NCBI GenBank assembly: GCA_050633305.1
Contig: JBOEGF010000010.1
Coordinates: 64,001 to 128,000, forward strand
Source of the DNA: Nannocystales bacterium
Lineage (GTDB): Bacteria; Myxococcota_A; Polyangia; Nannocystales; Nannocystaceae
DNA: 64,000 nt
Direction: 5' to 3'
Of this stretch, positions 227 to 64,000 are shown in pieces; position 1 is the first letter of the stretch, and each line of letters starts with the position of its first letter. The position numbers were made by a program, and so were the translations under genes. The notes below the pieces were generated by a model that was not told the origin of the DNA, did no database searches, and worked only from the letters and a program-made list of their open reading frames with translations.

Positions 227-1048
227 GTGAGCAAGCCTCGTCGTCACGGAGAGCCCCGCGACTCGGACACCCCTCGTCAGGAACCGCTGTACGACGAGTC
301 CGTCGCGAGCCCCTCGCATGCCGAGCACGCCCGGTCTCTCGTGCAGCGGGTCGACATGGGCGTGTTGTCCACGCACCACGCCGAGCTCGACGGGCACCCC
401 TACGGCTCGATGGTGATCTACGGGCTGCACGAGGGGGCGCCGATTCTGCTCATCAGTGGCCTCGCGGAGCACACGAAGAACCTGGAGGCATCGCCACGGT
501 GTTCGTTGCTCGTGCACGAACGCGGCCCAAAGAACCCGTTGGCGCTGTCCCGGGTGACGCTGGTCGGCGAGGGATCCAAGGTGGTCGGACCCGAGCGTGA
601 AGCTGTCGCGGCATCGTTTCTAGCTCGACACCCGGATGCGTCCTACTACGCGGACTTCACCGACTTCGCGTACTGGCGCATCGATGTGACCGGAGTGCGT
701 TTCATCGGAGGCTTTGGACGGATGTCGTGGGTTGAGCCCGAGCCGTGGGCGAACGCCCAGCCGGACCCCTTGCTGGATGGGGCGAAGGGCATCATCGAAC
801 ACATGAACGCGGACCACGCGGATGCCCTGCGTTTGTACTCCGAGGCGTTCAGCCGCTCAGGGCCGGTCCCCGAAGCGGTGATGACCGGTGTGGACCGGTA
901 CGGTTTCGAAATGTCCGTGACGACCGAGCAGGGCGCACGTCCGGTTCGCATCGCGTTCGATGAGCCCGCGACGGATTCGACCGCGGTGCGCGAAGCGATG
1001 GTCTCGCTGGTCAAGCGCGCGCGGGAACAACTGGGCCGCGAACGCTGA
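227..1048 (+). CDS. HugZ-like pyridoxamine 5'-phosphate oxidase family (split-barrel) protein with C-terminal DUF2470 domain
   Basis: GVLST...GHPYGS...ISGLAEHTKNL...RVTLVG, FIGGFGRMSWV and IIEHMNADHADAL...GVDRYGF motifs. Confidence 0.85.
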   Translation: MSKPRRHGEPRDSDTPRQEPLYDESVASPSHAEHARSLVQRVDMGVLSTHHAELDGHPYGSMVIYGLHEGAPILLISGLAEHTKNLEASPRCSLLVHERGPKNPLALSRVTLVGEGSKVVGPEREAVAASFLARHPDASYYADFTDFAYWRIDVTGVRFIGGFGRMSWVEPEPWANAQPDPLLDGAKGIIEHMNADHADALRLYSEAFSRSGPVPEAVMTGVDRYGFEMSVTTEQGARPVRIAFDEPATDSTAVREAMVSLVKRAREQLGRER

Positions 1049-2390
1049 GCTCGGCGGGCTGTCTCGCGGTCGAGGTCCACGGCTGAAGCAGCGCAGCCGC
1101 GGCCGGGGCGACACAGTATTCGAGCGCTCGCTGCGCCACCTCCAGCCGCTGCTCCGCGGTCAGGCGACCAACCACCCGCAGCACCGCCGGCTCGAGGCTG
1201 TCGGAGATCGAGACTGCACGGGGGACGGCGTCTTGGGCATGCGCGAACGCTTTGGCCACTGCGGCGCGCAGCGAGTCGTCGCCGCGACGGAGCATCCAAG
1301 CGAGTGCGGACCATGCGAGCTCGGCATGCCGAAGCTCTTGCTCGGCGATCTCGGAAAGGACCGCTGCGACCGAAGCATCGGTGGCATGGGAAGCTGCAAT
1401 GTCGAGCTGCATGGCGGAGATGGTCTCCGCGATGCAGCCCTCGGTCGCAAGCGACACGGCCGAGGCGATCGGGTCGGACGCATCGTCGAGGGCTCCTTCG
1501 ATGGGCAGCGCACTGGGGCCCAGATTCACGCCCCCGTAGGCGCGGGCCAGGCCAAAGAACGCACGCGCGTGCTCGACCTCCTCACTCATCGCTGCCTGGG
1601 CGCCTGCGATGAGTGAGGACGGCGCACCGACACTCATGAGCTGGAGGACGAAACGAGAGAACGAGGCTATGGACGCCGCCTCGTGGCATCCCTCTGCTGC
1701 CCAGGCTTCGCAGAGGACTGCCCGGGTCGAGGCTGAGAGTCCCGCAACGTTTGGCGAGCACGACCGCCACCAATCGTCACGTCGCACGACTTCGGGAAGT
1801 CGCGCGGCACCGCGGACGAGGAACGGACGGCCCGGGCACGACTGGCCAGGTTGAACGACCACCCATGCACAGCAGGTTGTCTCGCCAAGGAGAAAGGGTT
1901 CACACGCGGTCCGCTCCGCGAATCCGTCGCAAACCAGGCAGTCCCAGGCCGCGTCGAGGTAGTCGTCCTCCGTCTGCGTGTCACAGGCAGCGTCCGCGAC
2001 TCCGTCCACACAGATCGGGATGAGGACCTCGTAGGGCCCAAGCTCAGCCTCACAATCCGGTGCTCCCTCCACGGGCTCGCAGTCGGTCTCAAACTCGCCT
2101 ACGTCCGGGATTGCACCGATGTCGACGAAGGCATCTCCGATGTCGAACCGTGGGCCTTCACCGAGACCCCCGGTGTTGGGCATCGTGGGGTCACCGGAGG
2201 TGCTTATGGCCGTCGTGACTGGGGAGGTGCTCGGTGCCGTTGTCGCATCGCTCGACGTTGCGCCGGCGCTCGTCGTGCCAGTCGTCTCTGAGCCTTCGGT
2301 GTCGACGACGGGGCCACACCCGCCACCACCCATCGCCAACCCGAGTGCGACCGCCGCTCGAAGCCTCCCCGAGATTTCCACCCAATCCAT
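1011..2390 (-). CDS. Lipoprotein with Ser/Thr linker, Cys-rich segment and ferritin-like diiron domain
   Basis: Lipobox GGGC; CPGRPFLV; ligand-like motifs HEAAS, EEVEH, EGCIAET, QELRH. Confidence 0.75.
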   Translation of the reverse strand: MDWVEISGRLRAAVALGLAMGGGGCGPVVDTEGSETTGTTSAGATSSDATTAPSTSPVTTAISTSGDPTMPNTGGLGEGPRFDIGDAFVDIGAIPDVGEFETDCEPVEGAPDCEAELGPYEVLIPICVDGVADAACDTQTEDDYLDAAWDCLVCDGFAERTACEPFLLGETTCCAWVVVQPGQSCPGRPFLVRGAARLPEVVRRDDWWRSCSPNVAGLSASTRAVLCEAWAAEGCHEAASIASFSRFVLQLMSVGAPSSLIAGAQAAMSEEVEHARAFFGLARAYGGVNLGPSALPIEGALDDASDPIASAVSLATEGCIAETISAMQLDIAASHATDASVAAVLSEIAEQELRHAELAWSALAWMLRRGDDSLRAAVAKAFAHAQDAVPRAVSISDSLEPAVLRVVGRLTAEQRLEVAQRALEYCVAPAAAALLQPWTSTARQPAELSVRGPVVPARA

Positions 2391-2564: not shown

Positions 2565-3812
2565 CTACGGGGACTCCAAGCGGTGCAGCTCCGAGCGGAG
2601 TTCCAGCCCGTCATCGCCTTGCGTGTTGCAATGCAGGACGACGAGGGCACCCTGGGCATCGAACGCATGGCTCACGCCTGCGTTGCAGCCCGGGGTCGTG
2701 TGCGTCCACTGTTGCTCCTCGTCTTCGATGTTCACGTACGCCGCGACACCACAGTCCGTCGCAGGGTCGAAGCTCTCGGCGCAGTTGGAGCGCTCGCTGC
2801 CCACGTAGCCGGTGGGCGAGTAGGCGCTGCCGAACACCAGCTCCGGGTCGACGAGGACCGTCGAAAGGATGCTGGCATCGGCGGAGACGGTGACCACCGC
2901 ACGGTCATCGATGTCCACGACCGCGAGCGCATTTCCATCCTCGCCGAGTCGGAGATCATTGATTCCGTCGGTGCCCCCACTTGCGGGGAGGCGAAGCTCG
3001 GCGAGGGTCTGGAGGTCGTCGTCGACCCACACCAGCCATGCCTCGGCTTGAGAACTCTCGGGGGACGTCCCCCAGCTTCCGCCGAGCAAGAACCCATGTT
3101 GCTCGGATACGAGGACGGAGTCGAACAGCGTACCGCGGCCCTCGGAGTTGGTCCACGTCCGGGTGGCCACGATGGCGCCGAGACTGTCGAGATGGACGGC
3201 CCAGCCGTACACGGCATTGGGGTTGTCCTCGGCGAGTTCTAGGCCTACTGCGACGGCGCCCCCATTGCCCGTCGCGGCGACACTTCGCGGTCTGGATGGG
3301 AGCGTTGTGGTCCACAGTGGCTCTCCATCGGCGGAAAACTTGGAGACCGCATTGTCCGAGACCGGGATGTCCGAGTAGTCGACGAGCGAGATGAACACCG
3401 AACCGTCGGGCCCCGTATCAAGGCCGGTGAGGTCACGCTCTTCGAGCTCGCCGAGTTCGTTTTGCGAAAACGGAAGCGAGCGTTCCCACTGAAGTCCGCC
3501 GTCCTCGGCGAAGGCTCCAACCCACATCGCGTCGTAGAGGGTCAGGTCCCCGAATGTCCCCTGATAACCGGAGACTCCTGCGGCGACGACGGAGCCATCC
3601 TCGCGAACGTCGAGGTGCTGAATGGACCCGCCCTCGAGTACGCCAAGAGACTCGCTATCCGCGGTGGGGATCGAGCCTTCACCCGATTCGCCCGATTCAC
3701 CCTCGGAGCCTCCCGTTGGTTCGTCTCCGAGAGACTTCGAGCCGGGGTCACAGGCAGGACCCGTGGCGATGGATGACAGGCCGACGATGAACGTTACGTG
3801 CTTCAAGTTCAT
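2565..3812 (-). CDS. Lipoprotein, predicted beta-propeller; output gene of ECF cassette 1
   Basis: Start re-called at ATG 3812 (MNLKHVTFIVGLSSIATGPAC); acidic linker; repeated 'DG..LW' blade motifs. Confidence 0.7.
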   Translation of the reverse strand: MNLKHVTFIVGLSSIATGPACDPGSKSLGDEPTGGSEGESGESGEGSIPTADSESLGVLEGGSIQHLDVREDGSVVAAGVSGYQGTFGDLTLYDAMWVGAFAEDGGLQWERSLPFSQNELGELEERDLTGLDTGPDGSVFISLVDYSDIPVSDNAVSKFSADGEPLWTTTLPSRPRSVAATGNGGAVAVGLELAEDNPNAVYGWAVHLDSLGAIVATRTWTNSEGRGTLFDSVLVSEQHGFLLGGSWGTSPESSQAEAWLVWVDDDLQTLAELRLPASGGTDGINDLRLGEDGNALAVVDIDDRAVVTVSADASILSTVLVDPELVFGSAYSPTGYVGSERSNCAESFDPATDCGVAAYVNIEDEEQQWTHTTPGCNAGVSHAFDAQGALVVLHCNTQGDDGLELRSELHRLESP

Positions 3813-3824
3813 GGTTATGTCGGT

Positions 3825-3856
3825 TGAGTGCACGGCGACCCGAGAATCCGTCACGG
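3825..3856 (-). promoter_or_regulatory. Candidate ECF promoter, cassette 1 target copy: CCGTGACGGA-N13-GTGCACTCA
   Basis: Both boxes identical to the copy at 5139-5170 with the same spacer length; lies 12 nt before ATG 3812. Confidence 0.7.
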
Positions 3857-4591
3857 GTCCTGCGAAACTTTGTTGTCGCCAACGAGCCCGCAGCGTTGCC
3901 GCACTTTCGCGGTGAGTGCTCCACGGGGATGGGCTTGCACGAACGCGGTTGCTCGCCGGGTGTCGGTGGCCTCGACCATGCATGCCGCACTCGCGGCGAT
4001 GGCCTCGCGCTCGGTTGTGAGTTGCGGCGCGTGGAATCCGGTTCGATGAAAGTCGCAGAGCGCGAGCGCCTCCTTGGGCTTGCCGCGGTCCAGCGCGGAC
4101 TCTGCCTTGGCGATGAGGTCGGCTTCCGCACGCAAGGCGTCCGCTGTTGTCGACGGTGACGGCGTGGTGGTCTCGTGAGCGGCGGGCGCCGTGCGACGCG
4201 GTCGGGGTCTTGTTCGGGGCGCGACTTCGACCGGCGGACGTGCGGGGTTCGTCGGCTGTCCTCGGTCGACAGGAAGCGAGGGCGCGGGCGTCTGCTCGGA
4301 GGGGGGACCGAGCTCGGGGTGGTACGGCTGTTCAATCGGGGGGGGGACGCCCGGGTCAGACTCGGCTGGTGACCGGCTGGCGATCCACGTTCCGCCTGCG
4401 GTGACGACGGTTGCGACGACCAGCGCGACTTTTCCGAGCATCGGAGCCGCGGGCACACCTGTGGGGACGGGCGGTGCATCGACGTGCGCCAAGAGGCTCT
4501 CGAGTCCCCGCGACTCGGCATCGCCGCCAGGCGTCGCGGCAGGGAGACCATCGTCGATGAGCTTTCGAAGCTCGGGGTCAAGCGGCTCCAT
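3851..4591 (-). CDS. Putative anti-sigma factor: cytoplasmic N-terminus, one TM helix, Pro-rich linker, C-terminal TPR-like domain
   Basis: Overlaps the sigma gene 3' end; TM KVALVVATVVTAGGTWI; ALRAEADLIAKAESALDRG...ALALC helical repeat. Confidence 0.7.
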   Translation of the reverse strand: MEPLDPELRKLIDDGLPAATPGGDAESRGLESLLAHVDAPPVPTGVPAAPMLGKVALVVATVVTAGGTWIASRSPAESDPGVPPPIEQPYHPELGPPSEQTPAPSLPVDRGQPTNPARPPVEVAPRTRPRPRRTAPAAHETTTPSPSTTADALRAEADLIAKAESALDRGKPKEALALCDFHRTGFHAPQLTTEREAIAASAACMVEATDTRRATAFVQAHPRGALTAKVRQRCGLVGDNKVSQDP

Positions 4592-5168
4592 GGGTCCCTC
4601 CTTCGGCTTTCTGTAGCGCCTCGAGCGATGCCTTCATGCGACTCCGAGCCAGGCGAAGCCGGGAGTACACGGTGTTGAGTTTGGTGCCCATGACCTGGGC
4701 GATCTCGGGGGCCTGCAGCTGTGCGACTTCCGCGAGTACGAAGACCTCCCGCTGCTCCTCCGGGAGCTGACCGAGCAGCCGGTCGAGCCGGGCCAGGGCG
4801 GCCCGTCCGTGGACTGTCGATTCGATGGTGGGGGCCCGGGCCGGGGCCTCGGGTGGAAGTGGGTCGGTTTGTCCGCGTCGCACCCGAGTCCGGTGGCGTC
4901 GCGCAACGCGGAGCGCAATTCCGTGGAGCCAGGTCTGGACGCTCGACTCGTTTCGAAAGTCCGCACGACGACGATGCAGGACCAGGAAGATCTCCTGAAC
5001 GACATCCTCAACATGGCTCGGGGGGACGCCCAGCCGGCCGACCAAGGCCCATGTGGAACGAAAATGTGTTCGGTACGCATCGACGACCCATGCGGATGCA
5101 GGGTCCCGGCGCTGGCGTGGCTGAGCCCCCACACCTGCTGAGTGCACCCGGGCCTTCTTTTCCGTCAC
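4578..5168 (-). CDS. ECF-type RNA polymerase sigma-70 factor (cassette 1); true start may be GTG at 5132
   Basis: Region 2 EDVVQEIFL...TWLHGIALRVA; region 4 LPEEQREVFVL...EIAQVMG..LNTVYSRLRLAR. Confidence 0.92.
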   Translation of the reverse strand: MTEKKARVHSAGVGAQPRQRRDPASAWVVDAYRTHFRSTWALVGRLGVPPSHVEDVVQEIFLVLHRRRADFRNESSVQTWLHGIALRVARRHRTRVRRGQTDPLPPEAPARAPTIESTVHGRAALARLDRLLGQLPEEQREVFVLAEVAQLQAPEIAQVMGTKLNTVYSRLRLARSRMKASLEALQKAEGGTHGAA

Positions 5169-5170
5169 GG
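5139..5170 (-). promoter_or_regulatory. Candidate ECF autoregulatory promoter, cassette 1: CCGTGACGGA-N13-GTGCACTCA
   Basis: Matches 3825-3856; 6 nt upstream of the in-frame GTG at 5132. Confidence 0.7.
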
Positions 5171-6136
5171 CAGCCGCCGCTCGATCCCCAACATGCCCGC
5201 ACCGCCGAGTCGGGGGCTTTCAAGCAGGTTCTGGCGGTCGCCGATCCGAAACGCCGGGCGGGCGAGACCCACGGCAAGCAGGGCATCGAGGCAGAGGCGC
5301 CACTGCGGGTTCCACGCCCACCGAAGTCCTGCAAGCGCGTGGGCGCCAACCCAGACCGCTCGCGGGCGACGGGGGGCGGGAATTCCGACCCCTGCGCCAA
5401 ACACCGCACCGACAGCAGGTCCCGCACAGAGCGCGGCTGTGACGGATCCTCGTCCGGGCTCGTAACAACCCTGGACGTTGGCGGCCACTGCGGAGAAGCG
5501 CCCCCCGACGGTTGTGCCTGGATACAGGAGGCGGCGAGGCGTTTCGTAATGGCCAGCGACTCGTACGGCCCATCGGTCGCCCCTGAGAACGTACCGAGCG
5601 CCCAGGCGCGCGCTGACCGCTGGGACGTGGATGGCGGCGACTCCCGCGTCGACACCCACCCAGTGCGTGAACGGGGGACGGAGACGCGTTGATTCGTCCG
5701 TTGGCTGCGAGAAGACGGGGGCGGGGGCGGTTCGAGGTTGTTCCGCCTCGGGTGCGGGCTCGCGGGCGGGCGGAGGCTCGGGTGTTGGAACGAGGGGGAC
5801 GGCCGGCTCTGGCCGGGTGGATGGTGGCTCTGCGGGCTCGGGTTGCGCGTCGCGTGCCACAGCGATCACCACCATTGCGGCAGCCATCAAGTCCTCGCAT
5901 GACCCTGCCGTGAGGAGGCGTGGGTCGTCTCCGTCGATGCGGACCTCCGCCTGCCAACCGTTGGGTGTTGGCTCGACCTGCACCTCGCTCGTTCCCTGCG
6001 AAGCGTCGGACTCGAGCTCGGTCTCCAGGTACCCGGCAGCATCCGCCTGGGATGGACAGTCCGCAGGGGCATGCCAGCGAAGACCTCGCGCCTCCGGAGC
6101 GGAGAGAAGCAGCAGCGTGACAGACGCGGCGAGCAC
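5165..6136 (-). CDS. Exported protein, N-terminal WxAPxxCP domain, Pro/Glu linker and predicted C-terminal beta-barrel; first gene of ECF cassette 1
   Basis: Signal peptide; WHAPADCP...GSCEDL; alternating amphipathic strands in the C-terminal half. Confidence 0.65.
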   Translation of the reverse strand: MLAASVTLLLLSAPEARGLRWHAPADCPSQADAAGYLETELESDASQGTSEVQVEPTPNGWQAEVRIDGDDPRLLTAGSCEDLMAAAMVVIAVARDAQPEPAEPPSTRPEPAVPLVPTPEPPPAREPAPEAEQPRTAPAPVFSQPTDESTRLRPPFTHWVGVDAGVAAIHVPAVSARLGARYVLRGDRWAVRVAGHYETPRRLLYPGTTVGGRFSAVAANVQGCYEPGRGSVTAALCAGPAVGAVFGAGVGIPAPRRPRAVWVGAHALAGLRWAWNPQWRLCLDALLAVGLARPAFRIGDRQNLLESPRLGGAGMLGIERRLP

Positions 6137-6203
6137 GTGCCGCGAAGAGTGCCAGAAACCCGGGAGTGTCGGAGATGTCCGGGTGCGCTATCCATACGCG
6201 TCC

Positions 6204-6560
6204 ATGGGAATCGTCCTCTGGCTCGCGGTTCTCGCGAGCGCTGGCTGGCTGCTGTGGCTGTGGCTGTCCCGGGCGCGCCGAGTTGCGGTGGCAGGACGTC
6301 AGGCTCAGCGCCACATCGAGTTGGAGCGCGAGCGGCCTGGCGCGCTGCCGTCGGCATCGATCGAAGTCTCGTCGGCAGCAACCATCGAGCCAATCGTCGA
6401 GCGCGCCCCGTGTGCGGCGTGCGGAGGAGCGATGCACGTCGACGTGCACGAGGTCGAGGACTACGGTGGGGGCCGCCTTCGCCGAGTCGAGGCGCGGTGC
6501 GGCAGCTGCAGCCGGCCGGTCACGACTTGGTTTCGAGTTCGGGTGTCGCTGCCGAATTGA
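6204..6560 (+). CDS. Small membrane-anchored zinc-ribbon protein
   Basis: ATG 6204; N-terminal TM (IVLWLAVLASAGWLLWLWL); CAAC...CGSC. Confidence 0.7.
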   Translation: MGIVLWLAVLASAGWLLWLWLSRARRVAVAGRQAQRHIELERERPGALPSASIEVSSAATIEPIVERAPCAACGGAMHVDVHEVEDYGGGRLRRVEARCGSCSRPVTTWFRVRVSLPN

Positions 6561-58576: not shown

Positions 58577-59692
58577 TTGCTCGCCTTGCTCATAGCGCTG
58601 GCGCTCGCTGAGCCCGTGTCGTCGCCCGCTGCCCCTTCGTCCAAGGAAGCGGGGGAGGTTCCGGACACGGTCTTGATGTTGGAGGTGGGCTCGACACCTG
58701 GCTTCGATGCAAGTGCGTGTGTCGAAGCCACCGAGGCTCATGCGGGGGGTTCAGGGTTGAACTTCCACAGGCGTCCGTTGGAGTCGGACTCGGCGTTGAG
58801 CCAGGCGTTGTCACAGTCCCGGTCCGCGCCGACGCTTGCTGTGTTTTGGTTCGAGGTTCGCCCCGACGTGGTGGCGATCTACCTGTATGCGCCGCAGACC
58901 CACGCCGTATACGTCCGGGAAGTCGAGCGGAGCTCGGACGCGGCCGTGGTCGAGGCGGTGGGGCTGATCACGGCGTCCACGGCTGTCGCGTTGCGGTCCG
59001 GAGAGACGCTCGCAATGCGGAAGATCTCCGAGCAGGAGTGGTCGGAGCTACGAGCGGAACCTGAATCTGAACCTGAACCAAAAACCGCGGAACCCGAACC
59101 GGAGTCCGAACCCGAGCCCGACGTGGTCGAGACGACGCCCGAGGACCCGGCCCGGGCGTTGCCGTTGGAGTTCGGCGCCGCGTACCGTGGCGCAACGTTC
59201 AATACTGAGGCCCCGTGGCAGCATGGTGTGACGGGGCGCGTGGGCGTGCTCGTGGGCTCCGCGGTCATCGTAGAGCTTGGCTACGCTTGGATGGCTCCCG
59301 CGAACGTCGGCGGCGGACTCGACCTGACGCGCCATGAGCCTGAGCTCGCGGCGGGGTGGCGATGGCGCGGGGCTGGGAGGTTCGGGCTGGACGTGCTTGG
59401 CGTCGGTTCCATCGAGTTGAATCGTTGGCGGGCCGGGGCACGGGACGGGACTCGTGTTCGCGGCCGTCTGGGAGGAGCACTACGGGCCTCGCTCGAGGTG
59501 GGGGCAGGTGTGTTCTTCGAAGCGCGACTCGGCGCTCGCGTGGCCCTCAACGCGTTCGATTTCGTGGTGTGCGAGAGCCCGGATGCCGCGTGTACGGGCG
59601 ATGCGCGGGAGGTGGTCGCGTCGGGCTGGCGAGCCGCACCCGAGGCCCTCGTGGGTCTCTCCTACCGGTTTGGCGCCCCGGTGCAGAAATGA
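58577..59692 (+). CDS. Exported protein with Pro/Glu linker and predicted C-terminal beta-barrel; first gene of ECF cassette 2
   Basis: Signal peptide; EPES repeats; alternating strands ending VGLSYRF. Confidence 0.65.
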   Translation: MLALLIALALAEPVSSPAAPSSKEAGEVPDTVLMLEVGSTPGFDASACVEATEAHAGGSGLNFHRRPLESDSALSQALSQSRSAPTLAVFWFEVRPDVVAIYLYAPQTHAVYVREVERSSDAAVVEAVGLITASTAVALRSGETLAMRKISEQEWSELRAEPESEPEPKTAEPEPESEPEPDVVETTPEDPARALPLEFGAAYRGATFNTEAPWQHGVTGRVGVLVGSAVIVELGYAWMAPANVGGGLDLTRHEPELAAGWRWRGAGRFGLDVLGVGSIELNRWRAGARDGTRVRGRLGGALRASLEVGAGVFFEARLGARVALNAFDFVVCESPDAACTGDAREVVASGWRAAPEALVGLSYRFGAPVQK

Positions 59693-59722
59693 TCACCCTG
59701 TTTGCGGGGTCACCAGCTCTAC
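59692..59722 (+). promoter_or_regulatory. Candidate ECF autoregulatory promoter, cassette 2: ATCACCC-N18-CTCTAC
   Basis: Matches 62289-62319 with identical spacing; 9 nt before GTG 59732. Confidence 0.55.
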
Positions 59723-59731
59723 CTGACACGC

Positions 59732-60339
59732 GTGAAGCGCAGCACGGGCTATGGCATACCTGAACAAGGCGTGGGGAAGGACGGATCGGCGAACGAACGC
59801 ACGCTGGCCGAGCGCGCCGCAGCTGGAGATGCCGATGCGCGCCGCGCCCTCCTGCGCCATGTGCTCCCCACACTCCGCGCGGCCACCGTGGCGGTGCTTG
59901 GCGTCGGGGCTGATGCCGAAGACGCCACGCAGCAGGCCGCGATCGATGTGCTTCGAGGGCTCCAGACCTACCGAGCGGAGGCGTCGTTGAGCGCGTGGTG
60001 CAGAACGATCGGCGTTCGTGCGGCTCTTCGGGTGGCTCGCGGACGGAGGCCGGTCGCGGTCGTTGAGCCGGACCAGCTACAGGCGGACGAGCGAGGCTCG
60101 CAGCTGAGCGACGGCATTCCGGGCGAGCTTCGGGCTCATCTGGAGGCGATTCCGCGGCTTCAGGGAGAGGCGCTGATGCTCCGACACGGTATGGGCTACA
60201 CGGTGCCGGAGCTGGCCGAGCTTCTGGAGACGTCGGTCAACACGGTCAAGAGTCGGTTGCTCAAGGGTCGCAAGGCGCTACGAGCTCGTATTCGTCAGCA
60301 GTCGTTGTTGGCGCAGGCTCGCGCGAGCGGGAGGCCGTC

Positions 60340-60343
<4 letters not shown>
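59732..60343 (+). CDS. ECF-type sigma-70 factor (cassette 2)
   Basis: AEDATQQA...YRAEASLSAW; ELAELLETSVNTVKSRLLKGR. Confidence 0.9.
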
Positions 60344-61265
<922 letters not shown>

Positions 61266-61269
<4 letters not shown>

Positions 61270-62282
61270 GCCGGTTCGGGTGCATCGTCGTGGCGCTCCT
61301 CGGCCTCTCGGGGTGTGATGACGAGGTCGTTGGGTTTTCCGAGGTTGCAGACGCCGGCTCCTCGACCCGGGCGACCCTCGGCAGTTCGGAGGGCGATGGC
61401 ACCGCGGCCGACGGCACCGCGACGTCTGACGAGAGTTCGAGCTCCGGGGCTTCCGTTGAAGAGGGCTTGCCCGACTTCGTGGCCTACGGTTTCGAGGACG
61501 GGCTCGCGGTCTCGTTCACGGATGGACAGACCTGGACCGAGATCCCCGAACTCACCGACATGCCCATGCGTGAGGGGCTGGCGCGCGGAGAGGAACGGAT
61601 CGTCTTGGTGGGTGCGGATCGAACTGCGACGACCGAGGATGGCCTCACCTGGGAGGTCAACCCGTTCGACATTCCAACCTATGCCCGAGCCGTTGCCTAC
61701 GGAGCCGGGGGGTTCGCGTCCGTCGGCCTGGACCACCTCACGTGGTCCGAGGACGGCCGGAGTTGGGTCGACACCCGCGGAACCAGCACCGGGCTCGACC
61801 TGGTTGCGGTGGCATACGGTGGGGGTCGGTTCCTGGCGGTCGGCATCGATCGGATCGCGACATCGGAGAACGGTCAGAACTGGACGGTCACCGAGGCGGT
61901 GGGCGAGAAGCTCACCTCGGTCGCTTTTGGTGACGGACGGTTCGTCGCGATCGGGGAACTCGGACGCATCCTCGAGACGCAAGACGGGACCACGATCCTG
62001 CGCGATGAGGCATCGGGGTTGGCGGGCCTGGGCGGCATGCGGTTCTGTGGGGATTCGTTCGTGATCGGCGGTTCTGAGCGCTATTGGCTCAGTCCCGACG
62101 CGGGTGCGTGGACCGAAGTCATGAGCATCGGCGGGGGCGCATTCGCGTGTTCTGGAACGTCCTGGGTCGTGGTCAAAGAGGAAGGGCTGTTTTGGTCGCC
62201 CGAATTGGGCGGTTTCAGCCAGACCTACACTCCGCCGGGTGTGCTCTACGAGGTCGAGTTCACCGGTCTCGATTCACTGTAA
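61266..62282 (+). CDS. Lipoprotein with BNR/Asp-box-like beta-propeller
   Basis: GTGA coupling; lipobox LSGC; repeats VAYG.G.F.AVG....S.DG..W. Confidence 0.78.
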
Positions 62283-62288
62283 AAAACT

Positions 62289-62319
62289 ATCACCCGGATC
62301 TGGAGCCGGCCCTCTCTGC
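62289..62319 (+). promoter_or_regulatory. Candidate ECF promoter, cassette 2 target copy: ATCACCC-N18-CTCTGC
   Basis: Matches 59692-59722; A-tract upstream; 7 nt before ATG 62327. Confidence 0.55.
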
Positions 62320-62326
62320 TCTTTGG

Positions 62327-64000
62327 ATGGTCCGGGCAACAGCAACGACGATCGGTCTCCTTGCAGCGATGGCTGCTGGTGGCTGCTACCAGGGGGGGAG
62401 TGCAGGTGGGGCAGACACCGACACTTCGGACGGCGGCGAAACCGAACCTACGGACACCGAGGGCGAGGACGGCTCCGGTGAATCGGGAGATAGCGGGGAC
62501 GCCTTCGGGTGCGACGACAGTGTCTGGTCGGACTCGCTATCGATGCGGCGCCTCTCCGCCGTGCAGTACCGCAACACCGTCGAGTCGCTGGTGACTTGGG
62601 TTGCGGGGTCGCAGGCGCCCGACGTCCTCGGCGTGGTGACGCCGCTGTTCGACCGCGTGCCTGATGACGTTCCTCAGGCAGTGCACGGACCTCGGGGGGG
62701 GTTCCGGCGCCTCGATCAGAGCGTGCACCAGGCCCACATCGATGGGTCCTACGACGTGGCCCTTGCGGCGGCGACCCGCCTCACCCAAGACCACCTCGAG
62801 GCGTTGGCCGGCGCTTGCGCCGTGGATGGGGACCCCGGGAACGACAGCGCTTGCGTGGATAGCTTCATCCAGCGGTTCGGAGACCGAGCGCTTCGCCGCC
62901 CCCTTTCCGAGGAGGAGCGCGCTTTCTACCGCGATGTGTACGACGCGGACGGGCTCACCCAAGGTGCGGACCCCGAGGCGTTTGCTGACGTGGTCGTCGT
63001 CATGATGACGGCGCCCTCGTTCCTGTACCTGATCGAGCACGGAGAGGATGAGATCGAGGCTGTCGGCGGTGTGTACCACTTGGGCCCCTACGAGCTCGCA
63101 CAGCGGTTGAGCTACCAGTTCTGGCAAGCGCCTCCCGACGATGCGCTTCTCGCAGCGGCCGCGTCGGGCGAGCTCATGACTGACGAGGGCTACGAGGCGC
63201 AGGTCGACCGGGTGTTGGCCGACCCCCGATCCGAGTCCGCGGTTCGCGAGTTCTTCGGCGAGTGGCTCTGGCTCGAGGAGCTCCCTCCGATCGACGCGCG
63301 TGTCGGCACGCCGGTCTTCGACGCCTTCTTGGACGGTTTCGAAGTCACCCCTGACACGACGCAGAACATGGTCGATGAGGTCCTCGACGCCGCGTCGTAC
63401 TACGCCAGCGCAGGCGGGACGTTCGAGGAGTTCTTTCTCAGCGACCGCTCGTTTGCAACGACGCCCGACCTCGCTGAGATCTACGGCGTGCCGGTCTGGG
63501 ATGGCGGCGAGCCCCCGATGTTCCCACAGGCGGAGAGAGGTAGCCTCCTGGCGCGTGCTGCGTTCGTCGCCACCGGGTCGCCCAACACTCGGCCGATCAT
63601 GAAAGGCGTCCGGGTTCGCGAGGCGCTGCTCTGCGACCAACTGGCGCCTCCGCCGGACAACGCCGCTGGCAACCCGCCGGACCTTTCTCCCGACAGCACG
63701 ACCCGCGAGGTGGTGGAGATGCTGACTGAGCAAGCCGGCACGAGTTGCGCAGGGTGTCACCTGACCCAGATCAACCCACTGGGATACGTGACCGAGAGCT
63801 TTGACGCCCTTGGACGCCACCGGTCGCACCAGGTGCTGCTCGACGATGATGGCAACGTCACCGGAACGCGCGAGGTCGACACAACCTCGACCCCGTTGCT
63901 GACCCCTGGTGATGAGCGGCAGGCTTCGTCAGCCGCCGAGCTGGGCGCGATGATGCTGGAGAGCGAGCGGGTGCAGGCGTGTTTCGCCCGCAACTATGTG
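62327..64000 (+). CDS. DUF1592/DUF1588-type c-haem lipoprotein, truncated by the window end (absent from the ORF track)
   Basis: MVRATATTIGLLAAMAAGGCYQG; MRRLSAVQYRNT, RLSYQFW..PPD, RPIMKGVRVREALLC, CAGCH..INPLG. Confidence 0.85.
   Translation, partial: MVRATATTIGLLAAMAAGGCYQGGSAGGADTDTSDGGETEPTDTEGEDGSGESGDSGDAFGCDDSVWSDSLSMRRLSAVQYRNTVESLVTWVAGSQAPDVLGVVTPLFDRVPDDVPQAVHGPRGGFRRLDQSVHQAHIDGSYDVALAAATRLTQDHLEALAGACAVDGDPGNDSACVDSFIQRFGDRALRRPLSEEERAFYRDVYDADGLTQGADPEAFADVVVVMMTAPSFLYLIEHGEDEIEAVGGVYHLGPYELAQRLSYQFWQAPPDDALLAAAASGELMTDEGYEAQVDRVLADPRSESAVREFFGEWLWLEELPPIDARVGTPVFDAFLDGFEVTPDTTQNMVDEVLDAASYYASAGGTFEEFFLSDRSFATTPDLAEIYGVPVWDGGEPPMFPQAERGSLLARAAFVATGSPNTRPIMKGVRVREALLCDQLAPPPDNAAGNPPDLSPDSTTREVVEMLTEQAGTSCAGCHLTQINPLGYVTESFDALGRHRSHQVLLDDDGNVTGTREVDTTSTPLLTPGDERQASSAAELGAMMLESERVQACFARNYV

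Follow-up and report, generated by a model that had tools for sequence, protein, structure and literature searches.

The 64,000-nucleotide stretch of DNA analysed here (the window) comprises positions 64,001 to 128,000 of contig JBOEGF010000010.1 from the genome of a Nannocystales bacterium (11.0 Mb, 90 contigs, 65.9% G+C). It carries two four-gene cassettes, locus A and locus B, each encoding a protein with a predicted or probable outer-membrane barrel (gene 1), a sigma factor of the extracytoplasmic function (ECF) type, a transmembrane protein with a TPR domain (TM-TPR protein, gene 3) and a predicted lipoprotein (gene 4). The module is real, widespread and mechanistically coherent; the signal that it would carry and the inhibition of its sigma are proposals derived from sequences and models. 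We read the cassette as a TonB-independent switch across the cell envelope in which the sigma would be released by proteolysis, and we place the probability of this reading at about 0.7. Its basis in sequence is the gene order, a set of sigma fusions, conserved cysteines, a paired promoter-like motif and a peptide shared by the lipoproteins; its basis in models is the barrel fold and a helix of the periplasmic N-terminal domain (N-domain) of gene 1 that sits in the TPR groove.

Cassettes in the window, the genome and other genomes

The original prediction had placed eight open reading frames (ORFs) in two four-gene cassettes, each on one strand with overlapping or tightly spaced genes and with little identity between the loci, and all of this was found. 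Locus A lies on the minus strand, with gene 1 at 5165..6136, the sigma gene at 4578..5168, gene 3 at 3851..4591 and gene 4 at 2565..3812 (start from a codon-usage call), and with junction gaps of -4, -14 and +38. Locus B lies on the plus strand, with the corresponding genes at 58577..59692, 59702..60343, 60340..61269 and 61266..62282 and gaps of +9, -4 and -4. Both sigmas score above the Pfam cut-off for Sigma70_r2 and r4_2 and consist of regions 2 and 4 only, in about 190 residues, which defines them as ECF (group 4 sigma70) factors. Pfam at E 0.05 returned no family for locus A gene 3, for both genes 1 or for both genes 4. Between the loci the sigmas are 29% identical (E 2e-12) and the genes 3 are 26% identical (E 2e-7), with matches at E 1e-3 for gene 1 and E 0.011 for gene 4. 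This low identity and the separate clades of the two sigmas rule out a recent duplication; loci A and B are different subtypes, which we call type A and type B.

We counted the cassette family of this genome from iterative searches over all six-frame ORFs, leaving out one weak match without neighbours. There are 46 homologues of the type A gene 1, 42 of which have both domains by profile; one more is full-length with its N-domain missed by the profile, two have the barrel only and one the N-domain only. The last three are L053, L054 and L055: the two barrel-only homologues lack a sigma neighbour, and the N-domain-only gene is followed by a Cys-rich ORF. Homologues of other types number six for type B and five for a type C. 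Conservation of the gene order had been predicted, and 43 of the 46 type A homologues are followed by a sigma gene and a TM-TPR gene, four of them with inserted genes. Because it was found 43 times in one genome, the order is far beyond chance. In all 43 type A cassettes the barrel and the TM-TPR protein are separate ORFs, no search having been aimed at longer fused forms. Type B sets are complete in four of six cases, one being without a detectable sigma and one without a TPR gene, and in type C the sigma gene comes first, the TPR gene second and the barrel third, three of the five sets having an inserted lipoprotein gene. A tree built from 234 sigma domains groups all 43 type A sigmas, that of locus A included, within a single clade of 47 tips (support 0.996) and gives the five type B sigmas, including that of locus B, a clade of their own (5/5, support 0.976). 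The paralogues are old, sharing a mean identity of 24-36%, depending on the domain.

TonB-dependent receptors had been predicted to be absent from the cassettes, and none of the 15 plug matches in the genome lies in one; the match nearest to any cassette lies about 4-6 kb off and on the opposite strand. Likewise, none of the 13 FecR matches in the genome is in a type A or type B cassette. The type C anti-sigma at C8:239003-240250 has FecR plus TPR (7 of 12 proteins scanned), and a further type consists of a longer gene, barrel-like by eye, a sigma and a FecR anti-sigma, again with no TonB-dependent receptor (G000:C10:572167-575082, C18:382174-385074 and C5:152280-155249).

Outside this genome the N-domain profile matched 11,591 clusters (formed at 50% identity) when E values up to 0.001 were admitted, and 4,219 when the limit was 1e-10, and no Pfam family covers them. 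With 35-88 candidates scored per genome, the profile matched 57 of the 60 family genomes, with as many as 45 matches in one, as well as 22 of 151 genomes across the phylum and 17 of 113 in another class. For synteny in the family, 60 loci were taken from the 150 best-ranked of 811 matches, own genus excluded, with 6 kb fetched for each; since it was drawn from best-ranked matches, this sample leans to close relatives and includes orthologues. The expected conservation was borne out, with barrel, sigma and TPR gene in order at 51 of the 60 loci (21 of them fused) and with wider spacing at two more. The same order is kept at 11 of 20 distant loci; at three others the barrel lies 3' of the TPR gene, two have a divergent sigma, two have no sigma-TPR pair and two run into contig ends. 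The linkage of barrel, sigma and TPR is thus kept across families and classes despite changes of order and orientation.

The barrel protein and its predicted contact with the TPR protein

The type A gene 1 of locus A encodes a signal peptide, the N-domain, a Pro-rich linker and a predicted barrel, and its AlphaFold2 model (predicted local distance difference test, pLDDT, 91) shows the N-domain, a low-confidence linker and eight strands. The original prediction of a small OmpA-like barrel agrees with this model, in which the eight strands (5174-5668, minus strand) close into a predicted outer-membrane barrel; Foldseek gave as best matches the barrels of OmpA, Ail, NspA, OmpW and OprF, with OmpA at the top (E 1.5e-8, target TM-score 0.75). 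Conservation in the barrel is found in the long loops (G-x-L-P, G-x-G, W and R-P-x-F), in the lumen and at a Cys pair. In the OmpA topology the long loops of the barrel face outward, so the conserved long loops of gene 1 would be exposed on the outside. By sequence, gene 1 matched entries of the PDB in its linker only.

The N-domain (5849-6085, minus strand) is modelled by AlphaFold2 as a disulfide-bonded periplasmic domain of beta-alpha-beta-beta-beta-alpha order. Its two cysteines are invariant in 42 type A paralogues, and a hydrophobic stretch precedes it in 38 of 43 type A proteins. The model of the N-domain alone returned nothing at E 0.001 in Foldseek. By fold likeness HPF/RaiA came top (Z 8.6, root mean square deviation 3.0, 83 residues aligned), which is the level of a common arrangement, and TolB_N, LptE, CsgG and PqiC followed at Z 5.5-6.5. 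The STN domain was found neither by Pfam in the window genes 1 nor among the N-domain fold matches listed; the whole genome has one STN match, elsewhere.

Locus B gene 1, of type B, has a signal peptide, a longer periplasmic domain free of cysteine, a Glu/Pro linker and a C-terminal domain. Profile-profile comparison matched it to type A with probability 98.8 and E 1e-16, over a region that includes the linker, which suggests that this C-terminal domain is barrel-like. The Atlas leads for this protein all scored under 0.9 (OMP_b-brl 0.88, TolB_N 0.86, LpoB 0.84), and the Atlas clusters nearest to both genes 1 are unnamed and mostly from Myxococcota.

Gene 3 of locus A has a single hydrophobic helix (about 4379-4438, minus strand; hydropathy 1.75), a Pro-rich linker and a disulfide-capped TPR-like domain (3884-4150, minus strand), and in the alignments its short cytoplasmic part contains two conserved helices. 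The solved matches of its TPR profile are BamD only (four sequences), and these are weak, with a best E of 9e-5. A TPR profile also matches many ORFs of 800-1,200 residues in the genome, and those glimpsed start like Ser/Thr kinases. Gene 3 of locus B also has a single transmembrane helix (about 60610-60666, plus strand), and Pfam hits to TPR families there are sub-threshold (best E 3e-5). In 16 of the 43 type A cassettes the reading frame of the sigma runs on through a hydrophobic helix, a Pro linker and the TPR domain. We considered whether these fusions could be artefacts of ORF calling, and rejected this because sigma and TPR share a single frame without stops, in which a hydrophobic stretch separates them. 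The 16 in-frame fusions and the gene order together make it likely that the TM-TPR protein is an anti-sigma that inhibits its sigma, at locus A (where the alignments, the hydropathy, the BamD profile match and the complex model described next bear on the assignment) as well as at locus B.

The original prediction held that the N-domain of gene 1 contacts the TPR domain of gene 3, and for locus A this pair passed complex prediction with a score of 0.78, against 0.04 for the best control. The score mark used was reached by 116 of 157 solved pairs and 2 of 215 mismatched ones, counts that are roughly valid with the alignments used here. Separate runs share at least 85% of contacts with a partner pLDDT of at least 83. 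In the complex model the last helix of the N-domain sits in the TPR groove, and the interface residues are conserved columns. The Cys pairs in both domains fit a periplasmic location. In the type A cassettes the linker of gene 1 is 36-75 residues long and that of the TM-TPR protein 64-103 residues.

The lipoprotein gene and the promoter-like motif

The fourth gene had been described as a propeller lipoprotein, and here the original prediction holds in part: both window genes 4 have a lipobox and are predicted lipoproteins, but a fixed propeller gave way to a variable slot. Locus A gene 4 has an acidic linker and a probable beta-propeller body, which rests on a weak match (E 1e-5) to the designed six-bladed propeller SAKe6, and has seven further homologues at 44-73%. 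Locus B gene 4 begins its mature form with C-D-D-E-V-V-G and has a repeat-like body; it gave nine jackhmmer matches in the genome, and no solved relative was found below E 0.12. Self-BLAST detected no internal repeat in either protein. In 43 of 47 cassettes of this genome the TPR gene is followed by a gene of the same orientation, and a heuristic lipobox is present in 22 of these 43 genes 4, compared with 1,104 of 8,635 in the background. BLAST matches only three pairs among them, ruling out a fixed four-gene propeller cassette. Pfam, applied to 35 of 40 genes 4 from other genomes, gave unrelated families in 10 and none in 25. Bodies in the slot are unrelated and include propellers, RCC1, pacifastin-like and Cys-rich modules; the match between the two window genes 4 (E 0.011) does not establish homology. 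The pacifastin-like protease-inhibitor repeats occur in the gene 4 bodies of L122, L152 and L165, which hints at a possible response of some circuits to proteases.

What these lipoproteins share is a short peptide next to the lipid anchor, which we noticed in the genes 4 of this genome and then tested in other genomes. Among 40 lipobox genes that come from 62 cassettes of other genomes, 33 have the pattern C-x(2-9)-[LVI]-G, starting at the lipid cysteine, against 123 of 1,626 in the background of this genome, scored by the same rule; its strict form with G-[DE] is found in 18 of 40 against 23 of 1,626. Glycine stands at +7 or +8 in 27 of 34 anchored genes 4 from other genomes. In locus A gene 4 the peptide reads C-D-P-G-S-K-S-L-G-D. 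The peptide is found in one of four type B genes 4; two others differ and the fourth has no lipobox call. Two lipoproteins with the peptide lie 5' rather than 3' of their cassettes (G000:C18:4204-5022 and C21:44557-45567).

A promoter-like motif, GTGACGGA-N11/12-CGGA(C/G)A, is present at the junction of the TPR gene and gene 4, about 10-20 bases 5' of the start. Trained on the junctions of this genome, it exceeds 12 bits in 22 of 42. At held-out loci from other genomes it does so before gene 4 in 18 of 61, against 23 of 594 control windows, and before the sigma gene, a position outside the training, in 15 of 42 cassettes of this genome and 22 of 62 other loci. Before gene 1 there is no enrichment (2/43 vs 20/798). 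The two sites of a cassette resemble each other, with 13.7 of 20 bases matching against 10.3 when permuted (22 of 39 cassettes in this genome) and 15.0 against 11.3 at other loci (15 of 50 non-redundant loci), a comparison that leaves out L099, whose two sites are one and the same. Such cassette-matched sites have their boxes in common and hardly their spacers. At locus A the site before the sigma gene, GTGACGGAA-N10-GGGTGCACTCA (5139..5168, minus strand; 9.4 bits), has the same boxes as the site before gene 4, GTGACGGAT-N10-CCGTGCACTCA (3825..3854, minus strand; 12.5 bits), which ends 12 nucleotides 5' of the ATG and overlaps the stop codon of gene 3; both read GTGACGGA...GTGCACTCA. The placement of the first site suggests that the locus A sigma starts at GTG 5132. 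From their position and spacing we infer that these sites are promoters bound by the sigma. A type B promoter was sought in five cassettes and rejected, as matched pairs were no better than cross pairs. A wider regulon was also rejected: 22 of 1,104 other lipoprotein candidates exceed 12 bits, about the control rate, and those bearing the peptide show no enrichment, with one of 87. The cassette L018 (G000:C15:171504-175450) has two lipoprotein genes between barrel and sigma, and the first of these has the top promoter-like site outside the training set (20.2 bits).

The proposed switch, its rivals and known systems

In the switch that we propose, the barrel would be made independently of the sigma, because no motif precedes gene 1, and would therefore stand upstream as a constitutive sensor. 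Its N-domain would grip the TPR domain of the inner-membrane anti-sigma, and this contact would protect the anti-sigma; we take the sign from Fox, where contact with FoxA is reported to protect the anti-sigma FoxR (PMC11637429). Once the grip is lost, RseP-type cleavage would free the ECF sigma. The release is modelled on IutY, a sigma fused to its anti-sigma and freed by Prc and RseP (PMC5411451), and is invoked because membrane-fused sigma forms would need freeing; the genome encodes two RseP homologues. The free sigma would likely transcribe its own gene, giving autoamplification, and one neighbouring lipoprotein gene. In the most speculative step the peptide of gene 4 would dock on the conserved outer loops of the barrel, which would report whether its lipoprotein is both present and free; specificity would come from the variable body of the lipoprotein. 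Such a switch would give a role to a very large unnamed family and to 43 of the 234 sigma domains on the tree of this genome. The predicted interface, the cassette-matched promoters and the anchor peptide make it directly testable, and the cassettes are a natural set of possibly orthogonal switches.

It is possible, if somewhat doubtful, that the cassettes together form a self-monitoring surface array of dozens of insulated circuits per genome, each barrel being the receptor for the anchor peptide of the lipoprotein made by its own sigma. The lipoprotein body would then sense, or be lost to, a ligand, a protease or a neighbouring cell; the barrel would be vacated or moved, its contact with the TPR domain would break, and the sigma would restock that lipoprotein. 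If true, this would be a modular receptor family of predatory bacteria, with a constant transducer and a variable lipoprotein.

Several observations weigh against the proposed switch. For four of the 47 sigmas in the type A clade no barrel lies among the neighbouring called genes, and orphan barrels, without a sigma-TPR pair in the fetched 6 kb, make up 7 of the 60 family loci and 2 of the 20 distant ones. Neither Pfam nor the PDB yielded an anti-sigma family that matches the cytoplasmic part of gene 3. TPR grooves commonly bind a hydrophobic helix. A mirror-tree comparison of N-domain and TPR domain gave no pair-specific signal (Mantel r 0.08, p 0.13), and covariation at their contacts was z 0.38 against 0.14 +/- 0.16 (p 0.09), both over 104 pairs and thus of low power; one of six co-evolution tests, barrel against sigma, was significant (r 0.21, p 0.014). 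Finally, about half of the cassettes lack the motif or have it in a weak form, and none turned up in types B and C, locus B included.

The best of the rival explanations, which we nevertheless consider unlikely, is an assembly checkpoint, in which the barrel is a display or export partner of the lipoprotein and a BamD-like TPR domain senses failed assembly of either, so that the system reads envelope biogenesis and no outside ligand. BamD as the only solved match of the TPR profile, the likeness of the N-domain to TolB_N, LptE, CsgG and PqiC folds and the position of the conserved peptide beside the lipid anchor all favour it, and complexes of RcsF with outer-membrane proteins (OMPs) are a precedent (PMC4942254). 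However, 43 sigmas with cassette-matched promoters would be redundant for one general stress, and the modelled contact runs through a folded periplasmic domain rather than the barrel strands. We give little credence to a mechanical or distance gauge, in which two Pro-rich tethers join the membranes and are parted by their separation or by outer-membrane shedding, the lipoprotein being output only and its peptide a sorting signal. The narrow ranges of linker length and the promoter-like site that the lipoprotein gene has of its own fit such a gauge, and one has been proposed for Dma proteins, of which Dma1 crosses both membranes and includes an eight-stranded barrel (PMC10927553), but it leaves unexplained the dozens of insulated copies and the strong conservation of the barrel loops, and a peptide found in just 123 of 1,626 other lipoprotein candidates is rare for a general sorting signal. 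That the barrel is a co-inherited loose neighbour, with sigma and TM-TPR protein sensing a periplasmic cue alone, is very improbable: orphan barrels, barrel-less sigmas and the lack of visible pair-specific co-evolution would suit it, but the linkage outlasts changes of order and orientation across families and classes and the N-domain-TPR complex model passes.

The proposed switch resembles TonB-dependent cell-surface signalling (FecA/FecR/FecI, Pseudomonas Fox) in combining an outer-membrane protein with a periplasmic N-domain, an inner-membrane anti-sigma and an ECF sigma. It differs in having an eight-stranded barrel instead of a plugged TonB-dependent transporter, an N-domain whose strand order appears to differ from that of STN domains, TPR in place of the FecR domain in types A and B, an outer-membrane gene without the sigma motif, and a lipoprotein as output. 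Closer in architecture are Dma1/Das1, with an eight-stranded barrel, disordered periplasmic tether, transmembrane helix and ECF sigma, reported as restricted to Bacteroidota (PMC10927553), and ECF21 of the same phylum, in which some forms are fused to the sigma and others have the barrel and the anti-sigma encoded by separate genes (PMC7826278). Unlike the single chain of Dma, the cassettes have two chains that would meet through the folded N-domain and TPR domain, and unlike Dma and ECF21 they place the barrel gene first and add a linked variable lipoprotein with a conserved peptide. Trans-envelope signalling would in this way extend beyond TonB-dependent transducers and single-chain Dma proteins.

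Among myxobacterial groups, Casas-Pastor et al. (2021) describe ECF267 as lacking a TonB-dependent receptor and as having a FecR-like anti-sigma to which TPRs are fused, and list ECF210 and ECF216 as undescribed; the passages on ECF267 propose kinases and name no barrel partner (PMC7826278). Our type C and barrel-sigma-FecR sets fit what those passages say of ECF267, whereas the window anti-sigmas have no FecR domain, the comparison being by description. The cassettes would name an outer-membrane partner where ECF267 is described as receptor-less. In Myxococcus xanthus, DdvS/DdvA pairs an ECF sigma with a transmembrane anti-sigma that has periplasmic TPRs, and RseP-type release is proposed (PMC11506125). 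By that account DdvA combines a CHAT domain with a zinc-bound bundle in the cytoplasm; both are absent from gene 3, which is 246-309 residues long and has a barrel partner, and Pfam found no CHAT domain in either gene 3, both proteins being too short for one. RcsF-OMP of Escherichia coli is described as a lipoprotein and a beta-barrel that jointly signal across the outer membrane (PMC4942254), but the output given there is a phosphorelay and its barrels are general OMPs, while the pairing proposed here derives from a peptide motif. No description of a barrel-sigma-TPR module was found in literature searches that mostly exclude subscription journals, and passages of PMC3696898 contain nothing on one.

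The genes next to the window cassettes are of several kinds. Directly 3' of locus A gene 4, a gene at 1011-2390 (minus strand) without a Pfam match encodes a hydrophobic N-terminus, a Thr/Ser linker, a Cys-rich region and a helical C-terminal region, which has E..H motifs and is ferritin-like by eye. A small gene at 6169-6558 (plus strand), divergent from locus A gene 1 and also without a Pfam match, encodes one hydrophobic helix and two CxxC pairs. Right 3' of locus B, 62168-64000 (plus strand) encodes a DUF1592/DUF1588/DUF1595 protein, and a fused type A cassette lies 5 kb beyond the end of the window (G000:C10:133144-135401).

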